Of a stretch of DNA of 64,000 bases, positions 18,637-53,864 are shown one piece after another. The notes beneath the pieces were generated by a model, which was given only the letters and a program-made list of their open reading frames with translations, was not told the DNA's origin and searched no databases. A program made the translations under genes and the position numbers. Every line of letters begins with the position of its first letter. The first letter of the stretch is position 1. The DNA comes from Thermoplasmatota archaeon (GTDB lineage: Archaea > Thermoplasmatota > Thermoplasmata > UBA10834), in assembly GCA_018814355.1 (NCBI GenBank), contig JAHIZT010000053.1:798-64797 (forward strand), written 5' to 3'.

Positions 18637-19812
<1,176 letters not shown>

Positions 19813-19831
19813 TCTTCCGTTCTCCTACATA

Positions 19832-20338
19832 CTATTCCAGCGCGAATCCGCCGTGCTTCTTCAGATGAGGAATCAAACCGCCGTCCTCAAGCAATACTTG
19901 CATCGTCCTCGGAATAGGAGACGTTCTGGCGGTCTGCCCCGTGCGTACGTTGATGACTTCTCCCTTGTCGAAGTCCACCATTATCTCATCGCCCTCGGCT
20001 ATCCAGCCAGTATCACATTCAATCAAGGGAAGGCCCACGTTGAACGAGCTCCTGTAGAATATGCGCGCGTACGACCCCGCAATCACCGCTGCAACTCCGG
20101 CGGCCTTCAGAGCACGCGGTGCCTGTTCCCTGCTTGAGCCGCACCCGAAGTTCCTGCCCGCGACCACAAAGTCGCCCTTCGTGACCTTTGAGAAGAACTC
20201 AGGATCGATATCCTCCATAACGTGCTTCGCAAGCTCGTTCATGTCATCGATCTTGAACTTGTACCTTCCTGAGATGATGTAATCCGTGTTGATGTCGTCG
20301 TTGGGGACGAACCTGTGCGCTTTCCCAGTCAATTTCAT
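19832..20338 (-). CDS. 3-isopropylmalate/homoaconitate dehydratase small subunit (LeuD family, archaeal type)
   Basis: LeuD/aconitase swivel-domain pattern ([14 protein letters not shown]). Confidence 0.7.
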
Positions 20339-20350
20339 CGCATCGCCCTC

Positions 20351-21604
20351 TCAGATCTCCCTCGGATCGGTGATCTCGCCCTTGATGGCCGAGGCAGCCA
20401 CGGTCTCCGGCGAGGCCAAGTATATCCCCACATCCTTGTTGTTCCCCATGCGTCCCTTGAAGTTCCTGTTGGCGGTCGAAATGACATTCTCGCCATCAGA
20501 TGGAATCCCCGCATGAGTTCCCACGCAAGGACCGCAGCCAGGCGTGACAATTGCTGCGCCAGCCTTCAGAAGCTGAGATATGATCCCACGATCCATCGCG
20601 CTGAGGAGTATGCTCCTTGACGCCGGGGCAACGATCATCCTCACACCTGTTCTTATCTGATGACCTTTCAATACTCTGGCAGCTGCCTCGAGGTCGCTGA
20701 TTCGTCCGTTGGTGCAGGTCCCAAGGAAGGCCTGTTGAATCGCTATGCCTCTGAGATCAGAGGCATCTACGACTTTGTCCACGGAGTGAGGCTTCGCCAC
20801 TTTTGGGACGAGGTCGGATGCATCGAACTCAAAAACCTTCTCGTAAGTGGCGCCGTCGTCACTCGAGACAGCATTATCGGCCCGAAGACCGCGTTGGGAG
20901 AGCCATTCCGCGGTCTTCGAGTCGAATCCAAAGGGACAGAACTTGGCCCCCATCTCGACGGCCATGTTTGCTATCGTGAATCTTCCATCCATGATGAGCG
21001 AATCGATCGCTTCTCCTGAGAACTCGACGGACCTGTATGTCGCCCCATCGGCAGTCAGAGAGCCAATGACCTTGAGCGCGAGGTCCTTCGCTCCTATGCG
21101 GTCCGCAAATCCTCCGGCGACCTTGATGGAGAAGCTCTCAGGGACCTTGAACCACAGCTTGCCTGTGAAAGCCGCAGCAGCCACATCCGCCGAGCCGAGT
21201 CCTGTCGAGCACGCGTTCAGAGCGCCGTATGTGCATGTGTGGGAATCTGCTCCGATTGCGAGGTCCCCTGGCAACACATAACCGCCCTCAGGCACGACTT
21301 GGTGGCAGACGCCGTCCCCCACATCGTGGATTGGGATGGACCTTGTCCGTGCGAAATCCCTGATCTTGAAGTGTATCTTGGCGACTTCGACCGATGGGCA
21401 CGGAGAGTTGTGGTCGATCACAACCGCCATGCCTCGCTTGGTCTTGGGAGCCGAGAAGCCCAGGCTCTCGAGCTCCCTGATCATCATGGTGGATGTGCCG
21501 TCCTGGGACATGCAGAAGTCGACCGAGGCGACCACAATGTCCCCGGCTCTGCACTCAGCTCCTGAGTGCACAGACAACACCTTCTCTGCAATCGTTTGAT
21601 CCAT
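20351..21604 (-). CDS. 3-isopropylmalate/homoaconitate dehydratase large subunit (LeuC family, archaeal type)
   Basis: Aconitase family with Fe-S Cys ligands (GTCTNGR, PGCGPCVG). Confidence 0.75.
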   Translation of the reverse strand: MDQTIAEKVLSVHSGAECRAGDIVVASVDFCMSQDGTSTMMIRELESLGFSAPKTKRGMAVVIDHNSPCPSVEVAKIHFKIRDFARTRSIPIHDVGDGVCHQVVPEGGYVLPGDLAIGADSHTCTYGALNACSTGLGSADVAAAAFTGKLWFKVPESFSIKVAGGFADRIGAKDLALKVIGSLTADGATYRSVEFSGEAIDSLIMDGRFTIANMAVEMGAKFCPFGFDSKTAEWLSQRGLRADNAVSSDDGATYEKVFEFDASDLVPKVAKPHSVDKVVDASDLRGIAIQQAFLGTCTNGRISDLEAAARVLKGHQIRTGVRMIVAPASRSILLSAMDRGIISQLLKAGAAIVTPGCGPCVGTHAGIPSDGENVISTANRNFKGRMGNNKDVGIYLASPETVAASAIKGEITDPREI

Positions 21605-21607
21605 CCG

Positions 21608-22903
21608 TCAACTCCTCTTGAAGCCATGACCTACGTTGGAATCCGTCGTTGCGACATTCCTTCCAGACGCCGCCTGGAAGATCGCCATGAACTCATCGTC
21701 CGTCAGGTTCCTCTTTTTTGTCTCCCCGATGCGGCAGACCTCCAGCCTCATAGTCTCCATTGCGTCAGGAGAAGCGGAGAGTCCCAGCTGGTCTAGCTTG
21801 TGCTTTATCGAGGCCTTCCCAGAGTGCTTACCAAGAACGATCTTCCTCGTGATCCCTAGCATGCCCGGGTCGAACGCCTCGTAAAGGCTCGGGTTCTTCA
21901 GTATGCCGTCGACATGGATGCCCGATTTGTGGGTGAACATGTTCTCCCCCACGATAGGGTGGTTGAGTGGAATGCCCAAGCCGGATGCCTTCTCAACATG
22001 TTTGCACAGCGGGAGTATGTGCTCTGCGTTGTACTTCTCGATCCCGTAGTGGCTGTGGAGATTCATCACGAACACTTCGAGGGATACGTTTCCCGCCCTC
22101 TCGCCGAGACCATTTACCGTGGTCGAGACCCAGAGCTTCCTGTCCTTGAACTCGGCTGCAGCCTCGCATGCTGCGAGTGCGTTCGCAATCGCCAGGCCGA
22201 AGTCGTTGTGCGCGTGAAACTCTACGTCGATGTCGACCGACGACATCACCGAGCGTATCAACCTCTTTGACTTCGCGGGCGTGAGGACTCCCACCGTGTC
22301 ACAAATCCTGAACCTGTCCCCGCCGGCCTTCTTTCCAACGGATGCGAACTCGATCAGGTAGTCTATCGATGTGCGCGTGGCGTCGCCTGCGTTGAAGCAG
22401 ACATAGACACCTTTGCCTTTCGCGAAGCTCACGCAATCTGCGAGCTTCTCAAGCTGTTGTGCGCGTGTGATCTTGAGCTTCTGCTCGAGGGCCATGTCAG
22501 AGGTGTCCGTGGATATGGAGACAGCGTCCACTCCGTGCGCGATGGAATCTGCAACATCGGCCTTGACCATCCTGTTCCATCCCATGATCGACATCCTGCT
22601 AGTGATTTCATTCAATAGTTCAGCAGTCTTCCTGTCGCTGTCGTTGTAGGTCGCAAACGTCTCGAGCTGCTCGATCCCCATCTGCTCAAGCTTCCTAGCG
22701 ATCTCCAGCTTCTCATCCATCGTGAACGAGATGCCAGGCATCTGCTCGCCATCACGGCAAGTCGTGTCAACAATGCAGATATCGCCGAGAATCGGATTGC
22801 GGGCCTCAGCATGAGCTGGGAAGATAGACCCTGCTGCTCCTTCGTCCACGCACGATCGAACGCCTTTCTCACATCCACTCTTAGTGCTCATCAACAACAC
22901 CAC
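21608..22903 (-). CDS. LeuA-family 2-oxoacid:acetyl-CoA C-acetyltransferase (2-isopropylmalate / citramalate / homocitrate / Re-citrate synthase family)
   Basis: DRE-TIM metallolyase motifs (DTTCRDGEQ, HAHNDFGLA). Substrate specificity cannot be assigned from sequence alone. Confidence 0.75.
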   Translation of the reverse strand: MVLLMSTKSGCEKGVRSCVDEGAAGSIFPAHAEARNPILGDICIVDTTCRDGEQMPGISFTMDEKLEIARKLEQMGIEQLETFATYNDSDRKTAELLNEITSRMSIMGWNRMVKADVADSIAHGVDAVSISTDTSDMALEQKLKITRAQQLEKLADCVSFAKGKGVYVCFNAGDATRTSIDYLIEFASVGKKAGGDRFRICDTVGVLTPAKSKRLIRSVMSSVDIDVEFHAHNDFGLAIANALAACEAAAEFKDRKLWVSTTVNGLGERAGNVSLEVFVMNLHSHYGIEKYNAEHILPLCKHVEKASGLGIPLNHPIVGENMFTHKSGIHVDGILKNPSLYEAFDPGMLGITRKIVLGKHSGKASIKHKLDQLGLSASPDAMETMRLEVCRIGETKKRNLTDDEFMAIFQAASGRNVATTDSNVGHGFKRS

Positions 22904-30417: not shown

Positions 30418-30585
30418 CTAATCGGGAGCTTTCCTCACCCTGCCACAGATAGCGTACTGGTCGCCGTCGAAGAATACTTCCATGTCGGGGTTCTTGTTCT
30501 GTAGCTCCTTGATCTTCTCGAGTACCTCGCGCAGACTCAGCTCAGTGTTGTCCTTGTTAATCTTCACGAGCACTCGTTTTTCCAT
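30418..30585 (-). CDS. Small hypothetical protein (~55 aa) immediately downstream of hdrA
   Basis: ORF from MEKRVLVKINK. No recognisable family. Confidence 0.25.
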   Translation of the reverse strand: MEKRVLVKINKDNTELSLREVLEKIKELQNKNPDMEVFFDGDQYAICGRVRKAPD

Positions 30586-30693: not shown

Positions 30694-33141
30694 TCAATGA
30701 CCCGCGTGCGAGGACTGACCTGCCGAGTATGTTCCCTTGGGCCCGAAAACAGGGTTGACCTTGTGCGCAGAGGCTTCGAGGGCCTTCCTCCTTGCATCGG
30801 GAGGCACCTTCCCGAGCTGCCGGATCTTCTTGTCGAAGTTGTCGATGTGTTTCGGGAGCACTTTGTAGATCGGCAGAAGCATGGGCACGAATGTCACCCT
30901 GTCCTTGCCTATCCCCAGGGCGTCCAGTTCCGACGCGAGTCCCTTCAATCTCTCTTCAACGATGTGGGCGATCTCACCGCCCTCCTCGTCCGATAGGATG
31001 ACGCCGTCGGCTCCGTAGGCGAACGCTCGGAGGATCTCCCGCCTGCCCATCCTCGCAGCAGATGGGACCCTCATCATCCTGATCGAGGGCGGATACTCCA
31101 GTCTTGCAGTGCCTGCGCTGTCAGCCGCGACATAAGCCAGAGTGTCGCCAAAGAATCCGACTATCCTCAGATCTGGCGATGCCGCATCAAGCAGGCCGCT
31201 CATCTCAGAATCCACCTGTGAATCGGTGTAATGGGCAAGCTCGAACACGCGCTCGGGGCATTCGGAGACGCATGCCCCGCAACCTATGCAGGCGAACGTA
31301 TCGACTCTTGGTACCTCGTCGACCTGGATCGCCTTCGCCGGACAGATCGCCTCGCATGCTTTCCACTTCGTGCACTTCATCCCGTCCGCGACAATCGCCT
31401 TCACTGGGTCAACGAGCATCTTACCTGTGCCCAGGAACTCGACCACCTGTCCAGCAGTGCTCCTGCCATCTATGACGCTATCCCTCACATCCTTAGGCCC
31501 GAGGACAACACCGGCAGCGAATATTCCGGATCTATGGGTGGATACCGGGTCCAGCTTCGGATGCTTCTCAGACACGAACCCGTCCTCACCCAATGGCACC
31601 TTCATGAGCTTTGCCAGCTCGGCGGTCCCCTTGGAGGGCATCATCGCGGTGCAGAGCACTACCATGTCGAACTCATTCTCGATGATCTCGCCGAGGGTGA
31701 CATCCTCGGCCCTCACCATGATTCCGTTCGTGCCTTTCTGTATGTCCGAAACCTTGCCGTGGATGTACTTGACTCCGTAATCCTCCATCGACCTAACATA
31801 GAACTCCTCAAAGCCCCGACCGGCCGCCCTGATATCAATATAATACACGTAGACCTGCATGTAAGGGAAGGTCTTCCTGAGTATCACCGACTGCTTGATC
31901 GCGTAGTTGCAGCAGATCTTGCTGCAGTACGGCATGCCGACCTTCCGCGTTCTCGAACCCGCACAGAGGACGTACGCCACCTTCTTGACCCTGTTGCCGT
32001 CCGCTTTCCTTTTCAGGACCATGCCAGCGCCGCACTCGTTGATCATCAATCGCTCCATCTGAGTCGCAGTGATGACATCAGGCAGGGACGTGTCATACTC
32101 GTGGAGCTTCTTGACATCGAACATGTCGAAGCCTGTGGCGACGATCGCTGCTCCGACCTCGAACTCCTGGAACTGTTCCTTCTCCTCTAGGTCGATCGCG
32201 TGCACAGAGCAGACCTTGACGCACACACCGCACTTATTACACTTATCGAAATCCACAACGTACGATGCGGGCACCGCCTGTGGGAACGGCTTGTATATCG
32301 CCTTTCTCTCGTAGAGGCACTCCTCGAACTCGTTTAGGGTCTTAGCGGGACAAACCTTCTCGCACTTGGCGCATCCAATGCACTTCTTCGGGTCGACCCC
32401 CTTCGGGCCTATTCTGACCTTGACCTTGTAGCTACCCGGTGTTCCCGAGAACTCAACAACCTCCGTCCCAGTGTACAGTACGATATTCGGGTGAGTCCCT
32501 GCATCCACCATTCGTGGGCTCAGGATGCACGTGGCGCAGTCGAGCGTCGGGAAGGTCTTGCTAAGCTGGGCCATCCGGCCGCCGATGCTGGAGCTCTTCT
32601 CAACGAGATAGACCCTGTACCCCGAGTTTGCCAGCTGGAGCGAGGCAGATATTCCTGCGATCCCGCCCCCGATGACGAGCACCTCCTTGGACATCGTCAT
32701 CTCCTTCGGGAAGAGGGATTCGAGCCGAGCGGCTCTGAGAACGCCGCCCTTGACCAGGTCCTTTGCTTTCTTCGTGCCCTCGTTCTTGTCCTTGTGGACC
32801 CAGGAGCACTGCTCCCTGATGTTCACCATCTCTAGATTGTAGGGGTTGATACCGGCATCCTCGAGGGTCTTCCTGAAGGTCTTCTCGTGCATCTTGGGAG
32901 AACATGACGCTACGACGATCTTCGTCAGGCCATTCTTCTTGATGTCCTCGACGATCTGGTTCTGTCCGGGCTCGGAGCATGTGTAGACGTTGTCTCGGCT
33001 GATGACTACACCCTCAAGACCTTGAGCGTATTCGGAGACGGCCTTGCAGTCGACGGTCCCTGCGATGTTGCTTCCGCAGTGGCATACGTAGACCCCGATC
33101 CGTTCGTCCTTCTCCTCCTTCTTCTTCCCTTCGACAGCCAT
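30694..33141 (-). CDS. hdrA: Heterodisulfide reductase subunit A-like flavoprotein (HdrA) fused to a C-terminal MvhD-like domain lacking the usual Cys ligands
   Basis: N-terminal 4-Cys domain (VYVCHCGSNIAG), FAD motif VIGGGIAGISAS, and ferredoxin CxxCxxC motifs. The C-terminal RIVGFFGDTLAYVAADSAGTARLEYPPSIRMMRV...GADGVILS resembles MvhD with its Cys replaced. Confidence 0.8.
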   Translation of the reverse strand: MAVEGKKKEEKDERIGVYVCHCGSNIAGTVDCKAVSEYAQGLEGVVISRDNVYTCSEPGQNQIVEDIKKNGLTKIVVASCSPKMHEKTFRKTLEDAGINPYNLEMVNIREQCSWVHKDKNEGTKKAKDLVKGGVLRAARLESLFPKEMTMSKEVLVIGGGIAGISASLQLANSGYRVYLVEKSSSIGGRMAQLSKTFPTLDCATCILSPRMVDAGTHPNIVLYTGTEVVEFSGTPGSYKVKVRIGPKGVDPKKCIGCAKCEKVCPAKTLNEFEECLYERKAIYKPFPQAVPASYVVDFDKCNKCGVCVKVCSVHAIDLEEKEQFQEFEVGAAIVATGFDMFDVKKLHEYDTSLPDVITATQMERLMINECGAGMVLKRKADGNRVKKVAYVLCAGSRTRKVGMPYCSKICCNYAIKQSVILRKTFPYMQVYVYYIDIRAAGRGFEEFYVRSMEDYGVKYIHGKVSDIQKGTNGIMVRAEDVTLGEIIENEFDMVVLCTAMMPSKGTAELAKLMKVPLGEDGFVSEKHPKLDPVSTHRSGIFAAGVVLGPKDVRDSVIDGRSTAGQVVEFLGTGKMLVDPVKAIVADGMKCTKWKACEAICPAKAIQVDEVPRVDTFACIGCGACVSECPERVFELAHYTDSQVDSEMSGLLDAASPDLRIVGFFGDTLAYVAADSAGTARLEYPPSIRMMRVPSAARMGRREILRAFAYGADGVILSDEEGGEIAHIVEERLKGLASELDALGIGKDRVTFVPMLLPIYKVLPKHIDNFDKKIRQLGKVPPDARRKALEASAHKVNPVFGPKGTYSAGQSSHAGH

Positions 33142-36756: not shown

Positions 36757-37767
36757 ATGAACTTGTCCCCCCAGCACGCGAGCTATTGTGCAGACTCGAC
36801 CGGCAACCGGATCAAGAAATCACCGCGGTGGGACAACGGCGAGGGCGTGGCCTCCACAATCGGAACAATCATGTCGCTCCTCGTTTTCTTGACGGCCTTT
36901 GGGATGTTCACGAACCAGTTCGTGCCCGTATGGATGAGCGACAACGAGAGCAGCCACATGTCAACGGTCATCCAGCAGTTCACGACGCTCAAGTCGTCCG
37001 TGGACATCAGCATCTCTTACAACTCAAACAGCAGGATAGCACCTACGCCAGTGTTCGTGCCGATCACTTTGAGCTCGGCAGGCATCCCCGTGTTTGCCGC
37101 CCCCACCGCGGGGATACTGCGATACATTCCCGAAGCGATCAATCAGAGGCCTATGTTCAACATCACCTATAGTTACATTTCCCCAACTGGCACGCCGAAC
37201 ACCTTGAGCTCGAGCAACGATGGGCACTCAGGCGGCTCGCTAGACCTCTACTGTCCCAACAGATACTTTGTCGAGCAGCACTTGGTCTACGAATCGGGCG
37301 CAGTGATCCTCAACCAAAGCGATGGTGAATTCATCATTGCCGGGCCGCAGTTCTCAGTCAGGAACGTTGGGACTGCCAGCTCCCCGGAGATTGTGGTAAT
37401 GTTGACCCAGATCTCGCTCCAGGGCCTGAACAAGACCATCGGAGGCACTGGCTCCAAGGGAGTCACTGCGGACCTGCTATATGCGGACACGACGGCATAC
37501 GAGAACAGTGCAGGATCTCAGGTTACCATCACAATCGTCTCGAACCACGGCTATGCATGGTATGAGTACTTCCTGAGCAGGCTGGACGGCACGGCCGACA
37601 TGACAATAGGTAACGGGTTCACCCTGACGAAGGCACTTCTCCCATTCCCCCCATCCCCCAACAGAATGAACAACTACTACGTGGTCACCCTGACAATAGA
37701 CAATGTACATATTCTGGACTACACGCATGCCATCGTGAAGCTCTCGATAGGGGAGCTCGGAGTATAG
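36757..37767 (+). CDS. Putative archaeal pilin-like / archaellum-accessory-like protein with class-III-type N-terminal hydrophobic segment, N-glycosylation-sequon rich
   Basis: Charged leader (NRIKKSPRWDNG) then hydrophobic helix EGVASTIGTIMSLLVFLTAFGMF; beta-rich with many N-x-S/T sequons. Lies directly upstream of the FlaI-family ATPase. Confidence 0.35.
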   Translation: MNLSPQHASYCADSTGNRIKKSPRWDNGEGVASTIGTIMSLLVFLTAFGMFTNQFVPVWMSDNESSHMSTVIQQFTTLKSSVDISISYNSNSRIAPTPVFVPITLSSAGIPVFAAPTAGILRYIPEAINQRPMFNITYSYISPTGTPNTLSSSNDGHSGGSLDLYCPNRYFVEQHLVYESGAVILNQSDGEFIIAGPQFSVRNVGTASSPEIVVMLTQISLQGLNKTIGGTGSKGVTADLLYADTTAYENSAGSQVTITIVSNHGYAWYEYFLSRLDGTADMTIGNGFTLTKALLPFPPSPNRMNNYYVVTLTIDNVHILDYTHAIVKLSIGELGV

Positions 37768-37777
37768 GAGTGATCTC

Positions 37778-39538
37778 ATGGCTGAAGCTCAACCAAAGGT
37801 AAAACACGAAATCGATGTCAAGGCCCCGCCGATGCCACTTGGCGCCAGGATATATCAGGGCTGGGTGGGAGCTGTGAGCAAACTGAAGTCGTCCCCTATC
37901 GAGATCAGGGCTCCGAGAGGCGCGGCCGCACGGAAACGCGACTGGAGCCACGGTAGGGGTTCAGTGTACACCAAGATACCGCCGATCACCGACACCGCCA
38001 TTCAAGAGATCGGGTTCTACAGCGTGGTCGAGCCGTTCAGTTACACAAGAGCGACATACAACAGCACGATCAGCGAGTACATCCTGACCAACATAGAGCC
38101 CACCCTGACCGAGGACGAGGAGGAGCTCCTCAAACTCATCAAGGAGACCCTTGAGAAGACCCTCGAGTACGAATGGGACAAGCTGGCCGTGATGGACAAC
38201 AAGACATTCCTGGAGAGGAGCGTGGACAGTTTCATCAAGTCCAGAGGCATGAGCATCGAGCCGATCTCCAAGGACAAGATCACGTACTTCATCTCGAGGG
38301 ACTTTGTGGGCTACGGGAAGATCGACGCCCTGATGAACGACAAGAACATCGAGGACGTTTCGTGCGATGGCGTGGGAATCCCGCTGTTCGTGTTCCACAA
38401 CAAGTTCGAATCCATCAAGACGAACGTGTCGTTCGAAGACGAGGACGACCTCAACTCGTTCGTGATAAACCTTGGCCAGAGATGCGGCAAACAGCTGTCC
38501 GTCTCGAACCCGATACTGGACGGCACGACACCCGAAGGGCATAGAGTCCAAGCGACATACGCAAGGGAGGTCACGACCAGGGGCGCGTCGTTCACGATAA
38601 GACGGTTCAAGGAGAAGCCCTTCACTCCCGTCGAGCTAATCAAATACGGAACGGCGTCACCCGAGATCGTTGCGTACTTGTGGCTCAGCGTTGAGCACGG
38701 CGAATCCGCAATAATATGTGGTGGGACTGCCAGCGGCAAGACGGCGACACTGAACGCAATGGCCCTATTCATACCGCCAGGCGCCAAGGTCGTCACCATG
38801 GAGGATACGAGGGAGATCAATCTGCCGCATGAGAACTGGATCCCCGGTACGACAAGGTCCGGCGTTGGTGAGCGTGGCCCGGACGGCAAGGCCGCAGGAG
38901 AGATCGACATGTACGACCTCGTCAGGGCGGCGTTGAGGCAGAGGCCAAACTACATCATCGTCGGTGAGGTCAGAGGCAAGGAGACATACACGATGTTCCA
39001 GGCGATGGCGACCGGGCACACGACGTTCTCCACGATGCACGCTGACAGCGTTAAAGGAATGGTCAACAGGCTCGAGAACCCGCCCATCAACTGTCCCAGG
39101 ATACTTCTCACGGCCCTAAGGAACGTCATCATCCAGACCCATGCGAGAGTCGGGATGGGCATGGTCAGGCGGATCAAGCAGCTCATTGAGATCGTCGGTT
39201 TCGAGCCCGAGACGAACGAGCTCATAAGCAACACCGTCTACGAGTGGGACCAGGCGTCTGACAAGTTCATATTCAAAGGCCACAGCTTCCTTTTCGACAA
39301 GATCATGGAGATGAAGAACCTGACCCACGAGGAGCTCACGCAGGAGTTCGAGCGCAGGGTCGACATCGTGAAGTACATGGTCGCGAAGGATATTGCGGAC
39401 CACCGCGAAATATGGGGTCTGATCAGGGAGTATTACAAAGACCCCAAGGCCACCGCGGAGATGGTCCGCAAGGAGCTCCACGGGGCGGCTCCCAGACCCG
39501 CGCAGGTAGTAGTTTCCGGAGGTGAGGCAACTGCCTGA
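37778..39538 (+). CDS. FlaI/ArlI-family type IV filament assembly ATPase (paralog 1)
   Basis: Strong similarity to the archaeal FlaI core: Walker A GGTASGKTATLNA, Walker B/Asp box IIVGEVRGKE, His box TFSTMHAD. Confidence 0.8.
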   Translation: MAEAQPKVKHEIDVKAPPMPLGARIYQGWVGAVSKLKSSPIEIRAPRGAAARKRDWSHGRGSVYTKIPPITDTAIQEIGFYSVVEPFSYTRATYNSTISEYILTNIEPTLTEDEEELLKLIKETLEKTLEYEWDKLAVMDNKTFLERSVDSFIKSRGMSIEPISKDKITYFISRDFVGYGKIDALMNDKNIEDVSCDGVGIPLFVFHNKFESIKTNVSFEDEDDLNSFVINLGQRCGKQLSVSNPILDGTTPEGHRVQATYAREVTTRGASFTIRRFKEKPFTPVELIKYGTASPEIVAYLWLSVEHGESAIICGGTASGKTATLNAMALFIPPGAKVVTMEDTREINLPHENWIPGTTRSGVGERGPDGKAAGEIDMYDLVRAALRQRPNYIIVGEVRGKETYTMFQAMATGHTTFSTMHADSVKGMVNRLENPPINCPRILLTALRNVIIQTHARVGMGMVRRIKQLIEIVGFEPETNELISNTVYEWDQASDKFIFKGHSFLFDKIMEMKNLTHEELTQEFERRVDIVKYMVAKDIADHREIWGLIREYYKDPKATAEMVRKELHGAAPRPAQVVVSGGEATA

Positions 39539-40559
39539 AATATCCGACGTCTTCAAGCAGGTCGAGGTCAAACCTTCTCAGTACCTCAAGACCTCGATCG
39601 CGCAGACGGGCGAGAGGCTCGGCCCGCATGCTGTAAGACTCACGAAGGGCGCTGTTCCCGAGTACATCAAACTCTCGCCGTTCCAAGACCTCGCGTGGAG
39701 GACGATGGGCAAGTACGCCAAGACGAGGACAGCCCAGCTGCAGCAGCTGGATGACTCGCTCCTGAAGGCCCACATGAAGATCAGGCCAGAGGAGTACCTG
39801 GCATATGTGTTGATGGGCACGCTCGTCTCAGCTATCATAGGCGTGGCAATCGGCATAGGCGTCGGTGTTGTCCTGTTCGGCCTCCTGGGCGTGAGCGTGG
39901 TTCTCAGAGTCGTGGTGGCGGCCCTCGCGATTGGCCTGCTACCGATAATGGCATACATGATGTTGCTCGGCTCCCCGCATTCGAAGGCGAAGAGACGCGG
40001 AAGAGACATAGAGAAGAGGATCGCCGCCGCCATGAGCTTCATCTCGGCGATGGCGTCGGCCGATGTCAACATCGATGTCATATTCAAGGAGCTGTCAAGG
40101 CAGAAGGTCTACGGAGAGATAAGCCAGGAGGCCGCGTGGATCACCAGGGACACCGAGCTGCTGGGGTCTGATATCCTTACGGCCATCAAGAAGGCTGCAA
40201 AGAGGTCCCCGTCCTCGAAGTTCCAGGACTTCCTTCAAGGCGTCATCACCACATCGACATCCGGCGGACAGCTGAAGCCGTATTTCCTGCTCAAGGCCGA
40301 GGAGTACCAGAAAGAGAACAAGCTTGCCCTCAAGTCCCAGATGGAGACCCTGGGTATGCTCGCGGAGTCGTTCGTGACCGTCGTCGTCGCGTTCCCCCTG
40401 TTCCTTGTGCTCATCCTGGCGATCATGGCCATCGTCGGCGGGGGAGACCCCCAATTCATGGTCATGATGCTCTATCTGATAGTGCTCGGGATGATCCCTG
40501 TGTCACAGTTCGGTTTCATATTCGTCATCTGGAACATGTCAAAGGAGAGTGCGATGTAG
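39522..40559 (+). CDS. TadC/FlaJ-like membrane protein, N-terminal T2SSF domain (ends at in-frame TAG)
   Basis: TM helices flank a cytoplasmic T2SSF-like domain. Ends at TAG 40557-40559, followed immediately in the same frame by ATG 40560. Confidence 0.6.
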   Translation: MRQLPEISDVFKQVEVKPSQYLKTSIAQTGERLGPHAVRLTKGAVPEYIKLSPFQDLAWRTMGKYAKTRTAQLQQLDDSLLKAHMKIRPEEYLAYVLMGTLVSAIIGVAIGIGVGVVLFGLLGVSVVLRVVVAALAIGLLPIMAYMMLLGSPHSKAKRRGRDIEKRIAAAMSFISAMASADVNIDVIFKELSRQKVYGEISQEAAWITRDTELLGSDILTAIKKAAKRSPSSKFQDFLQGVITTSTSGGQLKPYFLLKAEEYQKENKLALKSQMETLGMLAESFVTVVVAFPLFLVLILAIMAIVGGGDPQFMVMMLYLIVLGMIPVSQFGFIFVIWNMSKESAM

Positions 40560-41492
40560 ATGCCGCCTCAGAAAGCCATGAATGAGCAGGAGAGGGAGAA
40601 AGCCCTCAAACGGATACTGGCAACTGACAAGGTGGACCTGACGAAGACCCTCCTGGGCGCTTCGATGGGTGTGGCCGCGCTGTTCATATTCATGGCAATC
40701 GTGGACAACATGGGAAGCCTGAAACTCCCACTAGACCCGATCGACTGGATCATCTTCGCAATCGCGGCGATCATCGGCCCGTACGGATTCTACGCGACCA
40801 CCAGGGAGAAGCGCGTTAGGGAGATCGAGACGAGGCTGCCTGACTTCCTGAGAGATGTCGCAGAGGCCGGCAGATTCGGCATGACTCTCGCGAACGCAAT
40901 AGTCGTCGCATCGTCCGGAAGGTATGGTCGGCTGACACCAGAGATCACGAGGATGGCCGCGCAGATCGAGTGGGGCGTGCCCGCCTCCGAGGCCATCAGG
41001 CTTTTCTCCGAGAGGGTCAAGACGCCTCTGGTCACAAGAATGGCGTCCATCATCATGAAGGCCAACGACGCAGGCGGCAATGTCGCCGATGTGCTGAGCA
41101 TGGTCTCGCACGACGCAAAGGACACCATCCTGACACAGGAGGAGAGAGGCGTTACGATGCAGACCTACGTCCTGGTCGTATACATCGCCTTCTTCGTGTT
41201 CATCGCCACCATCCTGATCCTGCAGGGCCAGTTCCTTCCGAAGATGGAACAGGCAGGCAAGCAGGTCAGCGAGCAGGCGGAGAAGCAGGGCCTGGGGGAG
41301 ATACCGGGTGTGAGCATTCAGGTTGACATCATCCCTACGGTCTCGTTCATCTTCCTGCTGTCTGTGGTCGTACACGCGATAGGTGACGGTCTGCTGGCGG
41401 GAGTCATAGCGAATGGGAGCATACCGATAGGCATGAGGCACAGCTTCATAATGCTGATCGCAGGGTTCGTATCATTGAGGGTCATCGGGTGA
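40560..41492 (+). CDS. TadC/FlaJ-like membrane protein, C-terminal T2SSF domain
   Basis: Second T2SSF-like domain with TM helices. Same reading frame as 39522-40559. Confidence 0.6.
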   Translation: MPPQKAMNEQEREKALKRILATDKVDLTKTLLGASMGVAALFIFMAIVDNMGSLKLPLDPIDWIIFAIAAIIGPYGFYATTREKRVREIETRLPDFLRDVAEAGRFGMTLANAIVVASSGRYGRLTPEITRMAAQIEWGVPASEAIRLFSERVKTPLVTRMASIIMKANDAGGNVADVLSMVSHDAKDTILTQEERGVTMQTYVLVVYIAFFVFIATILILQGQFLPKMEQAGKQVSEQAEKQGLGEIPGVSIQVDIIPTVSFIFLLSVVVHAIGDGLLAGVIANGSIPIGMRHSFIMLIAGFVSLRVIG

Positions 41493-41498
41493 GTAAAG

Positions 41499-43208
41499 AT
41501 GACAGAGACTGAACAGCCCAAGATGCAAGTTGAACCTGGAACCGAGGAACCGAATGAGAAGAAGAAGGGCCCAGGCTTCATGTCGGCGTACTACAACTTC
41601 CTGCTGAAGATCAAACCGAAGCCCTTGATGATCGCCCTCCCCAAGAGCGAGACCGGCACGGACATGTCGAGGATAACGGACATCCCCAAGATTTCCGAGC
41701 CGAACGTGGACGAGGTGGAGCTACTTCCGATCAAACAGAACTACGTCTACGTGAGGATCAAGTATGACAACAAGTCCAACGAGTACCTTTACGAGGTCAT
41801 CGAGCCGAAGCTGTCCGAGGACGAACGGGATGTCCTGACGCTCCTGAAGGAGACCCTGGTCGCTTCTGTCGAGAAGATGACCGAGACGGTAGCCGAAGAG
41901 AAAGAGAAGTACCTCAGGAGGATAGTCGAGAGGCTCATGGTTCAGCTCGGGGTAACGCTCCACCCGATCTCGAAGGAGAGGGTGACTTACTACATCATCA
42001 GGGACTTCATCGGATACGGTGTGATCAACGCGATGATGTCAGACCCGAACGTGGAGGACTGCTCATGCGACGGCGTCGATGTCCCATTCTACATATACCA
42101 CAGGAAGTACGGCTCGATCAGGTCAAACCTGAGATTCGTCAAGGAGGTGGAGCTGGACGGATATGTCGTCTGGCTGGCCCAGAAGTGCGGCAAGCACATC
42201 TCTGTGGCGAGCCCGCTGCTCGATGCAACGATCCCGGACGGTTCCAGACTGCAGGCGACCCTCGGTAGGCACGTGACAAAGAGAGGATCCTCGTTCACCA
42301 TCAGGCGGTTCAAGGAGAACCCGTTCACGCCCCTCGACCTGCTCAAGTTCAAGACAATGAGCACGGAGATGATGGCGTATCTATGGATCTCGATCGAGCA
42401 CGGCCAGTCGATGCTCGTCTGCGGAGGCACTGCGAGCGGCAAGACTACTACCCTCAACGCGATCCTGCTTTTCATCCCGCCTCAGATGAAGATCGTCTCC
42501 ATCGAAGACACCAGGGAGCTCAACCTGCCCCACGAGAACTGGGTCCCGGGCCTCACGAGGGAAGGGTTCGGAGGCAAGAGCCACATCACTGGCAGGGCGT
42601 CAGGCGAGATAGACATGTTCGATCTCCTCACATCAGCCATGAGACAGAGGCCACAGTACCTGATGGTCGGTGAGGTCAGAGGCAAGGAGGCATACGTCGT
42701 CTTCCAGGCCATGGCCACCGGCAAGACCTGCTACTCAACCTTCCACGCGGAGGACGTCCAGGCGATGGTGCACAGGATGGAGAACGACCCGATCAACCTG
42801 CCAAGGGCGCTTATCACGGCACTGAACATCGTCCTACTCCAGGCACAGGTCAAGGTCGGCACCAAGATGACCAGGCGTGTGAAATCTCTTACTGAGATCG
42901 TTGGCATCGACCCTGAGACGAACGAGCTCATCACCAACTCGGTCTACACATGGAATCCCGCGGATGACAGCTTCAACTACAGCGGCCACAGCTACGTTTA
43001 CGAGAAGGTCAGGATGGCCAGGAACTGGGCCCCGAGAGAGATGGAGAGGGAGATCAAGAGGCGTGTGGACATCCTGGAGTACATGAAGAAGATCGGGATG
43101 GACAACCACAGGAAGGTCGCAACGATCATCTCTGCATATTACAAGGACCCCGAGAAGGTCATGAAGGAAGTGAGGGCAAAGCTGGCTGAGGGCGCGGAGA
43201 AGCTCTGA
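41499..43208 (+). CDS. FlaI/ArlI-family type IV filament assembly ATPase (paralog 2)
   Basis: Walker A GGTASGKTTTLNA, MVGEVRGKE, STFHAE. Roughly half identical to paralog 1 over the core. Confidence 0.8.
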   Translation: MTETEQPKMQVEPGTEEPNEKKKGPGFMSAYYNFLLKIKPKPLMIALPKSETGTDMSRITDIPKISEPNVDEVELLPIKQNYVYVRIKYDNKSNEYLYEVIEPKLSEDERDVLTLLKETLVASVEKMTETVAEEKEKYLRRIVERLMVQLGVTLHPISKERVTYYIIRDFIGYGVINAMMSDPNVEDCSCDGVDVPFYIYHRKYGSIRSNLRFVKEVELDGYVVWLAQKCGKHISVASPLLDATIPDGSRLQATLGRHVTKRGSSFTIRRFKENPFTPLDLLKFKTMSTEMMAYLWISIEHGQSMLVCGGTASGKTTTLNAILLFIPPQMKIVSIEDTRELNLPHENWVPGLTREGFGGKSHITGRASGEIDMFDLLTSAMRQRPQYLMVGEVRGKEAYVVFQAMATGKTCYSTFHAEDVQAMVHRMENDPINLPRALITALNIVLLQAQVKVGTKMTRRVKSLTEIVGIDPETNELITNSVYTWNPADDSFNYSGHSYVYEKVRMARNWAPREMEREIKRRVDILEYMKKIGMDNHRKVATIISAYYKDPEKVMKEVRAKLAEGAEKL

Positions 43209-43944: not shown

Positions 43945-46900
43945 CTACTGGTTCTCGTCCTCTTCGCCTGACCCGGTCTCTTTCTCCTCGCCGCTCACGG
44001 GCGTCTTGATGATCTTCTTGGGCACGACCTTTCGGTCTATCGGCCTTCTGATGACCATCCTGGGCGCCATTGCCGGAGGCACCTGCTGAGCCTGTGTGCC
44101 GCCTCTCTCCTCCGTCAGAGGCGCCCCCTCGACCGCCCTCTCCTCGGGCGGCGCCGCGGGTGGCAGGCCCTTCTTTGGCGGTGCTACTGCTGGCTTGACC
44201 GCCCCGAACACGGTGCCGCACTTGTGGCACACGTTCGCTTCCTTCGGGTTCAGCGTGCCACAGACCGGGCACGGGACCGGGCCCTCCTTCTTCTTCTCCT
44301 CTTCCCTGGCGAGCCAGTCGTCGAAGCTGATGTACCCAGGCTGCGCCATCCACCAGGCCTCGAATGCCTTCTCGCTGAACTTCTTGCCTAGCTCGGGCTT
44401 CGCGAGCTCGCGGTACTTGGAGACGATCTCATCGTACTCCTTCCTCATGCGCTCGAGGTAGTCGGCCTCCACTTCGGTCTCGCCCGCGAACTTCACGCCA
44501 CAGTTCGGGCACTCGGTCGATTCAGCAGGTATCCACGCGCCGCACTCGGAGCACTTCATCGTGCCAGCTTCGAACTCGACACCACACTTCGGGCATCTCT
44601 TGCTCGCGGCCGGTATGAACGCGCCGCACTCGCCGCACTCCACGAGTTTACCAAGACCATATATATAAGTGTACACGGTGAAGCCAGCAACAACGCCAAC
44701 AACAGCGACGATGATGAGTACCCAGACCCACCACGGGAACAATCCGCCCGAGACTTGTGCGCTCACATGGATCGTGGTCGCGCTGTCATAATCGGAGTCG
44801 AGGATCACGGCCCTGACGGTGTATGTACCAGTGTCAAGAGATGGCGGTATTCTCAGGAGGACGATTATGCTTCCGTCCAGGCTCGTCGTCTCAACGGTGC
44901 TGTTCGAGTCCGGCACAAGCTCGCCGGAAGAGTCGACCAGCCAGAACACAACTCCTGGCAGACTCTTGACAGGGTCACTCATGCCGGCGTAAGTCACCGT
45001 CGCACTGATGACCATCATATCGCCAGCATTGTATTCGGCGAAGTCACTAATGATCACCACATCGACTAGCAGCTGCGTTATGTTGAAGGGTGCTACAGCG
45101 AAGTTGTTGGCCTCGTTCGGCTCTGCTATCGATCCCGGCCCATCAAGCCAGACCCAGATCTCGTAAGCGCCTGGAGTTGTCAGGTTGATCGGCCACAGGA
45201 CCGTGACCAGGAGCGTGTTCTCCGTCGCGTTCGAGGAGATGTTGTAGTTCGCTTTCGTGTGGATGGTGTGGTTATAGCCTGCGCCCCTGACGCCGATCTC
45301 CACCTGGAAGGCATCTACCCGCCTTCCTCCAAGGTCCCTGACAAGGGCTCGGACGTTGACCTGGTGACCGAATACATCGCTCGTTACGTTGGTCGTGCCG
45401 CGCTGCACATAGATGTCCGAAGACACGATGGACAGGTCCGGCCTGACATCGGTCACGGCAATGATGATAGTCTGCTCATTGTTCATGTAGTTCGTTTCCA
45501 CTTGGTCATGGCCCTCGTTGACCCTCATCACTAGGGTCACATCAGTCCGAACCGTCACTGTCGGAGACGTGAAGGTCTGTGTCACCTCGAGAGATCCGCT
45601 AGCGGCCGAGAGAGACACGCCAGAGACATCCCAGGGTATCGGAGCTATCGACCCGCCGGCCCATGTGACATAGAGAACCAGGTTTGGATTGACGAACGGT
45701 GCTGCGTTCAGGTTCTGCAACTGCGCTCTTACCGTTACGGTCTCTCCTCCTGGCACAGCGATAGCTGGGGTCGTCTCGATTGAGGACAGCAGCAGATCTG
45801 GGTGGTCGTACACCATTATCTGGATGCTATCATGGTTGTTTAGAGGATCCATTTCCTCGTAACCGCCCATTAGAGTAGCCACAACCTCAATCGTGTGTTG
45901 CACTCCAGGATTCGCTGGATTCCATGGAACAGATGCCAATATGGATCCACCGGGCGTAATTCCCGTGATGTTGTCCGATCCGACGTACGCACCATCATCG
46001 AAGAAGTCGACCTGAACCAAGGTGCTCACGTTGTTTCCGTCATTGTAGATTCTCGCCTGTAGGTCGCACGCCGTCCCAACGATCACGAAGTCGATGGACG
46101 CCTTGATGGATGGATTGAGGGGTGATCCCGCACTGACCCTGATGTCCGGAAGGCTCTTGATGGTCAAGATGCCAGATGCGATCGCGGGCGTAGCATCATT
46201 TATCTCGCGGATCACGTTGAGCCTGTCTGCCACAACTAGGAATGTGTGACTGTTCGGGTCGACCTGCCCCGATGCGGTCCAGCTGGCACTCGCAACTCCG
46301 GACAAGCCTGCCATGATCACCGGTATGCTCGTCGTGGCGAACAGTTCGTTGTTATCTACATCTGGAATGCCATTCTTGTTGAAGTCGTCGAAGAACTCGA
46401 CAGCAACTTTGTAGGCGCTCGCAACACCAGTGTTGTTTATCCTTCCATATATCCAAACAGTCTCCCCCATCCTCAGGTGCGTGATGGAGACGCCTGTTGC
46501 GTTTAAAGCCCAAACAGGTGTGTAACCCTGGTTCACGCTGAGGTCGCATAGAGCGGCTGGAATCGTCATTGTGGCATAGGTTGCGTTCCTGCCGAGCGGC
46601 TTCTCATAGGGCTTGACGCTCAGGGAGATTTCCGAATCTCCCGAAGAATTGTCAGCATAGTATGGCTGTCCCGCAACTGCAGGATATGTGTACGTAGCAT
46701 TGACCCAGTAGTTCCCCACGAAGGTGGAACCGATGGAAGTCAGTCTCGTGCCAAGCGAATTGACCTTGGCAACTCCGAGTGATTCTGGCGCGGCGCTGCT
46801 CATCGCCCATCCGGCTGGGACCTGGCTGACATATGATCTTGTGGATACGTTCACGCCTGGCAGAGGCATTCCTGCCCCATCGAGGACAGTCACATGGATC

Positions 46901-49206
46901 CATCTGTAGATCAGTGCTACAGCGTCGTCAGTAACCTCGATTGCGGGTACACTCGTGTTCGTGAACCCTGCCTCAACACTACCGGAGAGTTCCGGTATCT
47001 GGCTAAGGTCAGAATCCTTGATGGAGATCTTCTTGGTCCATGAATCCCAGGCCGTCGTGATCTTGCCATCCATCACCACATTGGAGAACAATATGGTCGC
47101 GTTCTCTTCGATGACAATGTTCACGCCTTCCATAACGGAGTCAACGACCTCTAGTATCCCGTCTCCCCTGACAACAATGTTGATCGGATACTGGCTTGTG
47201 ACTCTTGATTTCTGGAACAGCAGTTTCGCAGGGGAGGCGGCGGTTCCGTCGACATAGATCGTCTTCGTGTATGAGCCAGGCGGTACCAGCTGGAATACCG
47301 AGTTCGTGAAACTCAGTGTGCCTCCAGCGGCGACAATGACATCTCCTGCATGGTAGTATGTCATGTTCTTGATGTCAAGAGATGGAGGGACGACCAACCA
47401 TCTGGAGGGATCAGGGCTGGGCGCAGAGAGACCTATTATCGAAACAGTGACATCGAAGCTCTGATCAGCGTGGGTCATGGCAGGGTAAGCGGGGAAGGAG
47501 AATGCCTCCGTAGATTTGAATGATCCATTTACTCCTGTGATGTCGTAGGAACCTACAAACCTCGAGTCCATTGATCCACTGCCTGTGATGATGTCGGTGA
47601 GATAGGGTATTGTGGCCTTTCCGTCACTCTTCGTCATCGAATAGGTCAAAGCCGTCTCACCCATATAGGCAAGAATCTCGGAAGGGGGCGTCGTTGACAC
47701 ACTCCTCGGAGCGTAGTATATTGCCTGCAGACCCTCTAACTCGGTCGCGCCAGTGAAGTTGGCTAAGACATTGGAGTTGGATGTGGGGACGCCGTATTCA
47801 TCACCGATTGTTGTATTGAGCCATCTGTAGATGAAGGCGTCAGCTCCAACAGTGAACATTATCCAGATACGATCGAATTCGACGAAGCCTGCTCCAGGCC
47901 CATTCACGAATCTCATGTTCATGTTTCTGACATCGCCAACAGTCGCTATCGTCGACAACGGGAGATTGTAAAGTCTCTCAGTGCCTGGTGGATCGGTGTT
48001 GACAGGTACAATCGACGTATCAGAATACGCACTACCTTGCCTTGCCCACTGAACATGCGCCGTTCCGCTGTAAGCTGGGGCGACGGCATATGTCGCCACA
48101 AGCGTGGCTGAGCTTACTGGAAGGGCATCAGAAAGACCGCTCACGTCCCATGTGTCGATTTCGAGGGTTTGTGTCGGCAAGACCTGAATAGTCCCTCCAT
48201 CCACAACCGCGAGGTTCGTCAAGGATCCCGAAGTACTATCAGCGAGCCCTCTCGTTAGGGGGACTGCTGGCGATGCACTAGCTCCAGATGCCATGATGGC
48301 TGGGGCTCTGTCGGCTAGGGCTCCCGTGTATGTCTGGAAACTAGCTCCGTAGAAGTATGCATGAGACATGTCGTTGATTACTATCGCATTATGCACATGC
48401 CAATCCGCCGCAACTCGAGTTGGTCCGAAATCGACGCTGATATAGCTGTTGACGGCCAGAAGCGTCGACTCACCGTTCAGGGTCAAATTGCTCGCGGACA
48501 CGAGGTCAGTAGCATACTCAGGAAGGTCGAATATGGACGAATCATAGAGCTCCAGGGTCGAGTCGTTCAGGGTGATTGCAGGACCGTCATCGGCCGAGTC
48601 GAAGGTTATCGCGCCGCTCGATCCGATCACATACTGTGCGACCAGCGTCGGCGGGAGCGCCATGATCTCAGTGTCCGTCAGGCTGACGTTCGCGTCCGTT
48701 CTCAGGATGATGTTCCCTGGGAACATGAGCAACGAGTTGTTGGTCGCAATGAGCTTACCGCCATCCTGGACAGTGATGTTCAGGAACGGCCATGGGTTGA
48801 TCTGGTCCAGGTAGGCAGTGATGGTACCATGGTCCAGGACGAGCTTGCCGCCCGCGAAGACAGTGATACTGTGCTTCAGGTTAGGATTGTTGTTGCTGAT
48901 GATGCTCATGGTCGCGTCCCTGATGATCAGCTCTCCGCCGACTCGAACTTCGACATTGCCGTCGATCGGCTGTTCGATGTTCTCTATGGTATACGTTCCG
49001 TTCTGAACGATCAGGTCGCCCGCGGCGGCTCTCGTGGGCGTCATATCGGCCATGAACAGAAGGCCCGCGAAGGCGGAAATCACAAGACACACGACGGCCA
49101 AAGCACTCAACGTTCTATTGGCAACTAGCTTGTCAGCTTTGCCTTTCATAAAGTTCACCCACCCAGGATGCTGGGTACTGCGGGAAGAAGTAAGCAGGTC
49201 AGCCAT
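43945..49206 (-). CDS. Giant (1753 aa) cell-surface protein: N-terminal signal anchor, beta-helix-like and CARDB-like repeat ectodomain, C-terminal TM helix and cytoplasmic tail with three zinc ribbons
   Basis: N-terminal hydrophobic segment; hundreds of N-x-S/T sequons; CARDB-like motifs (EPNEANNF, DPLNNHDS); TM LFPWWVWVLIIVAVVGVVAGFTVYTYIYG; tail CGECGAF...CPKCG, CSECG...CPNCG, CPVCG...CHKCG; Lys/Pro-rich end. Confidence 0.6.
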   Translation of the reverse strand: MADLLTSSRSTQHPGWVNFMKGKADKLVANRTLSALAVVCLVISAFAGLLFMADMTPTRAAAGDLIVQNGTYTIENIEQPIDGNVEVRVGGELIIRDATMSIISNNNPNLKHSITVFAGGKLVLDHGTITAYLDQINPWPFLNITVQDGGKLIATNNSLLMFPGNIILRTDANVSLTDTEIMALPPTLVAQYVIGSSGAITFDSADDGPAITLNDSTLELYDSSIFDLPEYATDLVSASNLTLNGESTLLAVNSYISVDFGPTRVAADWHVHNAIVINDMSHAYFYGASFQTYTGALADRAPAIMASGASASPAVPLTRGLADSTSGSLTNLAVVDGGTIQVLPTQTLEIDTWDVSGLSDALPVSSATLVATYAVAPAYSGTAHVQWARQGSAYSDTSIVPVNTDPPGTERLYNLPLSTIATVGDVRNMNMRFVNGPGAGFVEFDRIWIMFTVGADAFIYRWLNTTIGDEYGVPTSNSNVLANFTGATELEGLQAIYYAPRSVSTTPPSEILAYMGETALTYSMTKSDGKATIPYLTDIITGSGSMDSRFVGSYDITGVNGSFKSTEAFSFPAYPAMTHADQSFDVTVSIIGLSAPSPDPSRWLVVPPSLDIKNMTYYHAGDVIVAAGGTLSFTNSVFQLVPPGSYTKTIYVDGTAASPAKLLFQKSRVTSQYPINIVVRGDGILEVVDSVMEGVNIVIEENATILFSNVVMDGKITTAWDSWTKKISIKDSDLSQIPELSGSVEAGFTNTSVPAIEVTDDAVALIYRWIHVTVLDGAGMPLPGVNVSTRSYVSQVPAGWAMSSAAPESLGVAKVNSLGTRLTSIGSTFVGNYWVNATYTYPAVAGQPYYADNSSGDSEISLSVKPYEKPLGRNATYATMTIPAALCDLSVNQGYTPVWALNATGVSITHLRMGETVWIYGRINNTGVASAYKVAVEFFDDFNKNGIPDVDNNELFATTSIPVIMAGLSGVASASWTASGQVDPNSHTFLVVADRLNVIREINDATPAIASGILTIKSLPDIRVSAGSPLNPSIKASIDFVIVGTACDLQARIYNDGNNVSTLVQVDFFDDGAYVGSDNITGITPGGSILASVPWNPANPGVQHTIEVVATLMGGYEEMDPLNNHDSIQIMVYDHPDLLLSSIETTPAIAVPGGETVTVRAQLQNLNAAPFVNPNLVLYVTWAGGSIAPIPWDVSGVSLSAASGSLEVTQTFTSPTVTVRTDVTLVMRVNEGHDQVETNYMNNEQTIIIAVTDVRPDLSIVSSDIYVQRGTTNVTSDVFGHQVNVRALVRDLGGRRVDAFQVEIGVRGAGYNHTIHTKANYNISSNATENTLLVTVLWPINLTTPGAYEIWVWLDGPGSIAEPNEANNFAVAPFNITQLLVDVVIISDFAEYNAGDMMVISATVTYAGMSDPVKSLPGVVFWLVDSSGELVPDSNSTVETTSLDGSIIVLLRIPPSLDTGTYTVRAVILDSDYDSATTIHVSAQVSGGLFPWWVWVLIIVAVVGVVAGFTVYTYIYGLGKLVECGECGAFIPAASKRCPKCGVEFEAGTMKCSECGAWIPAESTECPNCGVKFAGETEVEADYLERMRKEYDEIVSKYRELAKPELGKKFSEKAFEAWWMAQPGYISFDDWLAREEEKKKEGPVPCPVCGTLNPKEANVCHKCGTVFGAVKPAVAPPKKGLPPAAPPEERAVEGAPLTEERGGTQAQQVPPAMAPRMVIRRPIDRKVVPKKIIKTPVSGEEKETGSGEEDENQ

Positions 49207-53854: not shown

Positions 53855-53864
53855 CCACTACCAC

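Follow-up and report, generated by a model that had tools for sequence, protein, structure and literature searches.

An HdrA-type flavoprotein fused to a conserved MvhD-like domain without cysteines in a Thermoplasmatota archaeon

Introduction

In the solved complexes of heterodisulfide reductase (Hdr), electrons from a hydrogenase or a formate dehydrogenase pass through the [2Fe-2S] cluster of MvhD or VhuD, with HdrA's C-terminal ferredoxin domain likewise situated on the route to flavin adenine dinucleotide (FAD) (PMC9012536, PMC13518236). In one state the flavin is linked primarily through the cluster of VhuD; the input module is docked by a VhuD helix and the termini of HdrA (PMC9012536, PMC13518236). 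MvhD is regarded as an electron wire from these enzymes to the bifurcating flavin of HdrA. Fusions of HdrA with MvhD are well known as HdrA2 or "type Ia", and the papers describing them give them a [2Fe-2S] cluster (PMC12054007, PMC5296606). The published type Ia definition is silent on where fusions lacking the cluster would belong, and such fusions are not mentioned in the accessible part of a 2025 survey of 1,152 HdrA sequences (PMC12054007). A hydrogenase-independent role involving ferredoxin, F420 and the heterodisulfide has been proposed for HdrA1B1C1 of Methanosarcina in a 2018 review, where this complex, unlike HdrA2, is described without an MvhD extension (PMC6019823). Here we describe a gene for an HdrA-type flavoprotein that is fused to an MvhD-like domain devoid of cysteine. 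It lies in a stretch of 64,000 nucleotides, called the window below, from a Thermoplasmatota archaeon (positions 798 to 64,797 of contig JAHIZT010000053.1, assembly GCA_018814355.1).

Results

A conserved MvhD-like domain without cysteines

The gene is a single open reading frame (ORF) with an ATG start that encodes 815 amino acids followed by a stop codon. Its features are as follows, with the basis of each assignment in brackets; pN/pS is the ratio of nonsynonymous to synonymous variation.

30694..33141 (-): HdrA-type flavoprotein fused to a cluster-less MvhD-like domain (ORF and translation)
32722..33108 (-): N-terminal Fe-S domain, residues 12-140, with Cys20, 22, 32, 55, 80 and 112 (alignment to chain A of PDB 5ODC, 5ODC_A)
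32407..32721 (-): FAD/thioredoxin-reductase-like domain, part 1, residues 141-245, with VIGGGIAG and Cys202/Cys205 (Pfam Pyr_redox_2, FAD_oxidored and NAD_binding_8 from residue 153)
32179..32406 (-): inserted 2x[4Fe-4S] ferredoxin domain, residues 246-321 (Pfam Fer4 and Fer4_7; cysteine mapping)
31426..32178 (-): FAD/thioredoxin-reductase-like domain, part 2, residues 322-572, with E363, K416 and Cys393/406/410/411 (alignment to 5ODC_A)
31222..31425 (-): C-terminal ferredoxin domain, residues 573-640, with C590-x2-W593-x2-C596-x3-C600-P; C618/621/624/628 intact (cysteine mapping)
31363..31365 (-): TGG codon, Trp593 in place of a cluster-ligand Cys, Cys587 of 5ODC_A (DNA read directly; alignment)
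31168..31221 (-): variable linker, residues 641-658 (mean identity 0.51 and pN/pS 0.45 among 18 genes)
30811..31167 (-): MvhD/FlpD-like domain without any Cys, residues 659-777 (Pfam PF02662, MvhD chains of the PDB, AlphaFold2 (AF2) model and Foldseek)
30697..30810 (-): C-terminal tail, residues 778-815, one helix and then a low-confidence stretch ending ...SHAGH (AF2 model)

The C-terminal extension was recognized by the Pfam FlpD/MvhD model PF02662 at residues 660-777 (E 9.3e-22; 77.8 bits, with the gathering score at 22.3), over the whole profile (positions 1-123 of 123), and the C-terminal 176 residues matched the solved MvhD and VhuD chains at E ~1e-12. The original prediction had recognized an MvhD-like extension at about nucleotides 30900-31200, close to the domain boundaries found here. 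It had also claimed that every cysteine ligating the MvhD [2Fe-2S] cluster was replaced, and this proved correct. None of the six conserved MvhD Cys columns is kept: FCCNWC became FFGDTL, VMCSGR became VPSAAR, and GGC..GDCHY became SDEEGGEIAH. No cysteine was found downstream of residue 628, that is, in the last 186 residues (630-815), and the C-terminal region was free of Cys in 115 of 120 homologue clusters. These clusters, formed at 90% identity, were used for all counts of Cys columns, and a set of 40 homologues was used for the FAD residues. Alignment with both MvhD and HdrA2 upheld the homology to MvhD, with the Cys set kept in HdrA2 and replaced in the present protein. We know of no Fe-S cluster type that is bound without Cys, and so the MvhD-like domain, having none, is unable to bind a [2Fe-2S] cluster. 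With regard to the published type Ia definition, the fusion architecture fits and the [2Fe-2S] cluster cannot be bound (PMC12054007).

Foldseek with a full-length model retrieved HdrA chains only, and the domain was therefore modelled alone. The AF2 model of residues 641-815 had a predicted local distance difference test score (pLDDT) of 82.6, and it superimposed on chain D of 5ODC with a target-normalised template-modelling (TM) score of 0.80, and the root-mean-square deviation was 2.9 A over 137 columns, the whole MvhD chain. All four PDB matches at E <0.001 were MvhD chains. Hence the MvhD fold is retained in the model, and neither of the two ways in which the original assignment might have failed, a better match to another family or cysteines present in shifted positions, was borne out.

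The domain is also conserved. Among 18 orthologous genes, pN/pS was 0.20 for the MvhD-like domain and 0.16 for the FAD domain, as compared with 0.45 for the linker and 0.43 for the tail; these figures are rough, as synonymous sites were near saturation. In an alignment of 20 sequences 58 positions of the domain were invariant, and three residues of the former cluster site, D718, E719 and G722, are conserved in the homologues of the protein. The C-terminal extension is a true homologue of MvhD which has kept its fold and is under purifying selection. Since the domain is conserved and yet has no Cys, a structural or docking role instead of that of an electron wire, as suggested originally, is a reasonable reading of the sequence.

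Cofactor ligands of the HdrA core

Residues 12-651 aligned end to end with HdrA of 5ODC, a complex from Methanothermococcus thermolithotrophicus, at E 2e-184 and 46% identity. Pfam placed the start of the FAD Rossmann fold at residue 153 and dicluster ferredoxin regions at about residues 249-316 and 583-636. When every Cys column of the alignment was mapped, 27 Cys were found to be common to the two proteins. All those listed above for the N-terminal domain and for both parts of the FAD domain align to Cys of 5ODC_A and are conserved in 119-120 of the 120 clusters; Cys205 corresponds to Cys197 of 5ODC_A, and Cys393/406/410/411 to Cys386/399/403/404. The inserted ferredoxin domain has all eight of its Cys (254/257/260/264 and 301/304/307/311). 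E363 and K416, invariant in the 40 homologues, align to E356 and K409 of 5ODC_A, which one study links to stabilising the bifurcating flavin (PMC12054007). Judged by these ligands, the FAD site and the bifurcation-related residues are intact, and so are the cluster of the N-terminal domain, the one leading to HdrC and the inserted, ferredoxin-reducing domain.

The C-terminal ferredoxin domain has seven of its eight Cys. Trp593 occupies the second Cys position of the first CxxCxxCxxxCP motif, so that one cluster of this domain is left with only three Cys ligands. The full HdrA cofactor architecture claimed in the original prediction thus holds for the shared Cys and for E363/K416, but not at this position, where the change had been missed. 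Trp593 is not a sequencing error, because Trp is fixed in 66 of the 120 clusters, those most like the present protein; the remaining 54 have Cys. In ferredoxins, a missing second motif Cys usually marks a [3Fe-4S] or other three-Cys cluster, and the cluster concerned is probably of this kind. Sequences with Trp593 also carry about 12 extra C-terminal residues, encoded here at 30697-30732 (-) and usually ending ...[HR]AGH. Of the 66 sequences with Trp593, about 57 had such a His-ending extension, as against 0 of the 54 with Cys593. The tail is predicted to be disordered, with pLDDT below 50 for its last residues.

The best-scoring NCBIfam models were HdrA2 NF040770 (823 bits, residues 14-778), hdrA_Methbact NF041891 (642 bits) and hetero_SS_HdrA NF041778 (561 bits), and each of the three covered almost the whole protein. 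By these scores it is a relative of all three families and an equivalog of none. An artefact or pseudogene was rejected in view of intact orthologues in the 120 clusters and in 16 species genomes. The long HdrA type of Methanomassiliicoccales was also rejected, as that type has two FAD sites and mvhDGA alongside (PMC4153887).

Genomic context and lineage

The ORFs of at least 150 amino acids in the window were scanned with Pfam, and no hdrB, hdrC, mvhA/G, fdh or mcr was found among them, in agreement with the original statement that no hdrB/hdrC, mvhAG or fdh genes flank the gene. On one side hdrA is flanked by a divergently transcribed KaiC/helix-hairpin-helix ATPase, and on the other by a conserved 55-residue ORF, DUF531, PurM, FtsJ, an Lhr helicase and enolase. 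Clade members with identities down to about 74% retain this order of housekeeping genes, and hdrA was unlinked from hdrBC in all seven clade loci in which gene content was inspected. The separation of hdrA from hdrBC is a stable trait of this clade, and unlinked hdrA and hdrBC are normal in several methanogen orders (PMC4153887).

The 55-residue ORF (30418-30585 (-); MEKRVLVKINKDNTELSLREVLEKIKELQNKNPDMEVFFDGDQYAICGRVRKAPD) lies directly downstream of the HdrA gene and has no Pfam match. Its position is retained in four of the clade loci (L001, L003, L023 and L024), down to about 74% HdrA identity, and the two genes may share a transcript.

Among species-representative genomes, 16 close orthologues of 76-86% identity were found, all from metagenome-assembled genomes (MAGs) of Thermoplasmata/Thermoplasmatota. 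Those of RBG_19FT_COMBO_56_21 and OBJ2_061818_130_30 were 83% and 85% identical to the present protein. The literature assigns both genomes to the GTDB order UBA10834 (Ca. Gimiplasmatales), genus COMBO-56-21, with a G+C content of 0.555 and a size of about 1.9 Mb; the G+C content of the window is about 0.56. Through these two genomes the window was assigned to the same lineage. Published MAG surveys of UBA10834/COMBO-56-21 describe non-methanogenic organisms without mcr and report HdrA-D, MvhAGD, a folate-type Wood-Ljungdahl pathway and acsA-E. In one further locus (L014, DYTN01000002.1) the orthologue could not be read through from the expected start, with 110 residues in frame, and the deposited protein, P0099, has 732 residues. 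This interruption is probably an assembly frameshift.

Cluster-less HdrA fusions in other archaea

To find further members of the family, about 15 billion proteins were searched, with each 50%-identity cluster represented by a single sequence. The search gave more single-core HdrA proteins, 760-805 residues long, with an FlpD domain in which Cys are absent or limited to one or two at scattered positions and never form the MvhD ligand set. According to cluster names and a second profile search, cluster-less members occur in Baldrarchaeia/Odinarchaeota MAGs, in Methanobacterium HdrA, in Methanoperedenaceae, and as HdrA1 in Methanosarcina (M. mazei, M. siciliae and M. thermophila, labelled "subunit A1" by JGI). 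The MvhD-like domain is thereby retained in at least five distant archaeal lineages. In the domain alignment the six MvhD Cys columns were missing from all cluster-less members, which have derived motifs, for example RVPS/RVPT, in common, and Methanothrix HdrA2 retained the Cys set. A neighbour-joining tree of the HdrA core, computed without support values, placed the Cys-less proteins in two adjacent groups separate from HdrA2.

Three of these relatives were inspected for gene order, which was hdrA-hdrC-hdrB in M. mazei and hdrC-hdrB-hdrA in Methanobacterium oryzae and in a Methanoperedens-type contig (L025, L026 and L027, respectively). In each case a ferredoxin-type hdrC and an hdrB with a CCG domain lay directly beside the cluster-less hdrA, and no hydrogenase or formate dehydrogenase gene was adjacent to hdrA in the three loci. 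The suggestion in the original prediction of a bifurcating partner unlike the classical HdrBC is not supported by this arrangement, nor by the HdrA-D and MvhAGD reported in the lineage.

As a separate observation, Pfam detects an MvhD-like domain lacking the Cys set in Methanosarcina HdrA1 and in its relatives from Methanobacterium and Methanoperedens, contrary to the description of HdrA1 in the review cited above (PMC6019823). The JGI product name on proteins of this kind is [quoted passage not shown]. Because database annotation (Pfam, JGI names) already recognizes the domain, the loss of the cluster across the family seems under-described and not unknown.

Other loci in the window

A type IV pilus/archaellum-like locus at 36757-43208 (+), with two T2SSE ATPases and two T2SSF membrane proteins in tandem, adjoins the HdrA region in all relatives inspected. 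It is followed by a gene for a 1753-residue CARDB-repeat protein with zinc-ribbon/double-zinc-ribbon domains at its C-terminal end (43945-49206 (-)), and two more proteins with double-zinc-ribbon domains are encoded at 49263-50279 (-) and 60830-62500 (-). The gene at 58633-60813 (+), near the gyrB/gyrA genes at 51236-55793, encodes a 726-residue protein with a bacterial DnaA-type ATPase domain fused to DUF835, which is unusual in an archaeon (Pfam Bac_DnaA, E 1.8e-48; TIGR00362 DnaA, 287 bits, under the cutoff). At 18637-22903 (-) a homocitrate/isopropylmalate-synthase-like gene was found with genes for large and small subunits of the aconitase family and an NADP isocitrate-dehydrogenase-like gene. 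A coenzyme B (Aks) pathway was rejected for this locus, as the methanogen Aks/Hac equivalog models all scored under their cutoffs and the dehydrogenase resembles NADP isocitrate dehydrogenase.

Discussion

We favour, with a probability of roughly 0.6, the reading that the protein is the flavin-containing A subunit of a soluble Hdr-type complex, bifurcating in the manner of HdrA1 and working with HdrBC-like partners, in which the MvhD-like domain has a structural or docking role. A dimeric core would send one electron branch to ferredoxin and the other to an HdrBC-like (CCG-domain) partner, whose genes, as relatives and the literature suggest, lie at another place in the genome. The MvhD-like domain would have ceased to carry electrons and would serve as a structural, docking or gating module beside the mobile C-terminal ferredoxin domain. 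Since this domain has no cluster, a third substrate could not enter through it, unlike in the Mvh/Vhu/Fdh-Hdr complexes; it would have to react at the flavin directly or enter via ferredoxin-type clusters, as proposed for the hydrogenase-independent HdrA1B1C1 of Methanosarcina. That proposal fits a subfamily in which the MvhD wire has become dispensable. As mcr is absent from the lineage in published MAG analyses, the heterodisulfide of coenzymes M and B (CoM-S-S-CoB) is probably not the disulfide that the enzyme reduces.

Several observations weigh against this assignment. Both hdrB and hdrC were absent from the scan of the window and from within 10 kb in every clade member inspected. In a search with the HdrB encoded beside the homologue P0435, all 120 matches listed were of Methanoperedens type. 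The protein also stays below the curated NCBIfam cutoffs of its three nearest families, which are 1100 bits for NF040770, 1300 for NF041891 and 1400 for NF041778. Finally, Trp593 could signal that the C-terminal ferredoxin branch is being lost as well, in which case the route of electron entry would be less clear.

A rival reading is that the protein does without HdrBC. It could be an orphan HdrA whose cluster-less domain docks a non-classical partner, such as a GlcD-like or a sulfur-transfer protein. The unlinked hdrA in a stable housekeeping neighbourhood throughout the clade members inspected would suit such an orphan, as would a host reported to be non-methanogenic, in which the classical substrate is probably absent. 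However, Cys393/406/410/411 of the cluster leading to HdrC are invariant, homologues with the same domain occur in hdrC-hdrB-hdrA operons, HdrB, C and D are reported for the lineage in the MAG surveys, and the separation of hdrA from hdrBC is ordinary in several methanogen orders (PMC4153887). We therefore consider an orphan of this kind unlikely.

The conservation of the domain, which extends to D718, E719 and G722 where the cluster used to be, might alternatively mean that it has gained a new ligand. The emptied pocket with its invariant acidic SDEEGGE would then bind F420H2, NAD(P)H or a metal, and among Trp593 proteins the tail with its terminal His might stand in for the lost Cys as a cluster ligand. 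It is in keeping with this that an HdrA2 fused to MvhD oxidises F420H2 without a recognisable F420 site, as stated in two papers (PMC5296606, PMC12054007), and that Trp593 and the His-ending tail co-occur at the frequencies given above. On the other hand, no binding motif was detected in the MvhD-like domain, the acidic motif is not common to the Methanosarcina, Methanobacterium or Asgard members, the tail is predicted to be disordered, and the significant Foldseek matches were confined to MvhD chains; a new ligand thus seems about as improbable as an orphan HdrA. Less probable still is that the domain is what remains of a decaying MvhD fusion and has no function. The complete loss of cofactor ligands from the domain would be expected of a remnant, but its pN/pS of 0.20 is near that of the catalytic domains and far under the 0.45 of the linker, its Pfam match extends over the full profile with the fold kept, and it persists in at least five distant archaeal lineages. 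An HdrA1-type subunit with a structural or docking MvhD-like domain accordingly remains the reading that we prefer.

A wider and rather doubtful proposal is that the cluster-less MvhD-like domain marks an undescribed functional class of HdrA, comprising proteins of Gimiplasmatales, Asgard archaea, Methanobacterium, Methanoperedens and the Methanosarcina HdrA1. In such a class docking or gating would have been separated from the wire, and the third substrate would bypass MvhD. In the subclade of the present protein the input branch would have been remodelled further (Cys593Trp and the His-ending tail), perhaps to serve a disulfide or polysulfide acceptor in a non-methanogen.

A conserved MvhD fold without its cluster in the Thermoplasmata clade, in Methanosarcina HdrA1 and in Methanobacterium suggests that MvhD has a second, structural role besides that of a wire, be it docking, gating or holding the mobile ferredoxin arm. 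The degenerate MvhD-like domain of HdrA1 seems to have been overlooked in the 2018 review (PMC6019823). A separable structural role of MvhD would be testable in the genetically tractable Methanosarcina, and the protein described here refines the reading of Hdr in non-methanogenic relatives of Methanomassiliicoccales.

Comparison with described systems

In the classical Mvh/Vhu/Fdh-HdrABC complexes (PDB 5ODC, 7BKB, 8RVU and 9SW2) the HdrA core, 46% identical in 5ODC_A, and the MvhD fold are shared with the present protein. There the input module is connected to FAD by the [2Fe-2S] cluster of MvhD or VhuD, which is a subunit of its own (PMC9012536, PMC13518236), whereas here the domain is fused and cluster-less.

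HdrA2 of Methanosarcina and Methanothrix (type Ia, NF040770) has the same fusion and gave the top NCBIfam score. It retains the MvhD Cys set with a reported [2Fe-2S] cluster (PMC5296606), whereas the present protein has neither, and the two branch apart in the neighbour-joining core tree, which carries no support values. HdrA2B2C2 has been characterised in M. acetivorans. In that organism hdrA2 is reportedly, in work of Buan and Metcalf from 2010, also unlinked from hdrB2C2.

Closer in the state of the MvhD-like domain is the long HdrA of Methanobacterium (NF041891), of about 790 residues, which is likewise cluster-less and shares the RVPS and [VI]Y.P motifs. It is 38% identical to the present protein and, unlike it, is encoded in an hdrC-hdrB-hdrA operon. 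The closest 50%-cluster representative of the same architecture, P0122, stands for HdrA proteins of 794-797 residues from Asgard (Baldrarchaeia/Odinarchaeota) MAGs and is 47% identical in one stretch over residues 11-789. Its MvhD-like domain is also free of Cys; these proteins differ in coming from another phylum and in having an intact Cys set in the C-terminal ferredoxin domain.

Methanosarcina HdrA1 (NF041778, "ferredoxin:CoB-CoM heterodisulfide reductase subunit HdrA") has the same domain order and a C-terminal FlpD/MvhD-like domain, recognized by Pfam, without the MvhD Cys set. It is less than 50% identical to the present protein (50%-cluster representative P0243), is encoded in an hdrA-hdrC-hdrB operon whereas the gene described here is unlinked, and has eight of eight Cys in its C-terminal ferredoxin domain as against seven of eight. 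The host of the present protein is reportedly non-methanogenic. The protein encoded at 30694..33141 is a further member of an existing HdrA subfamily and not a new system.

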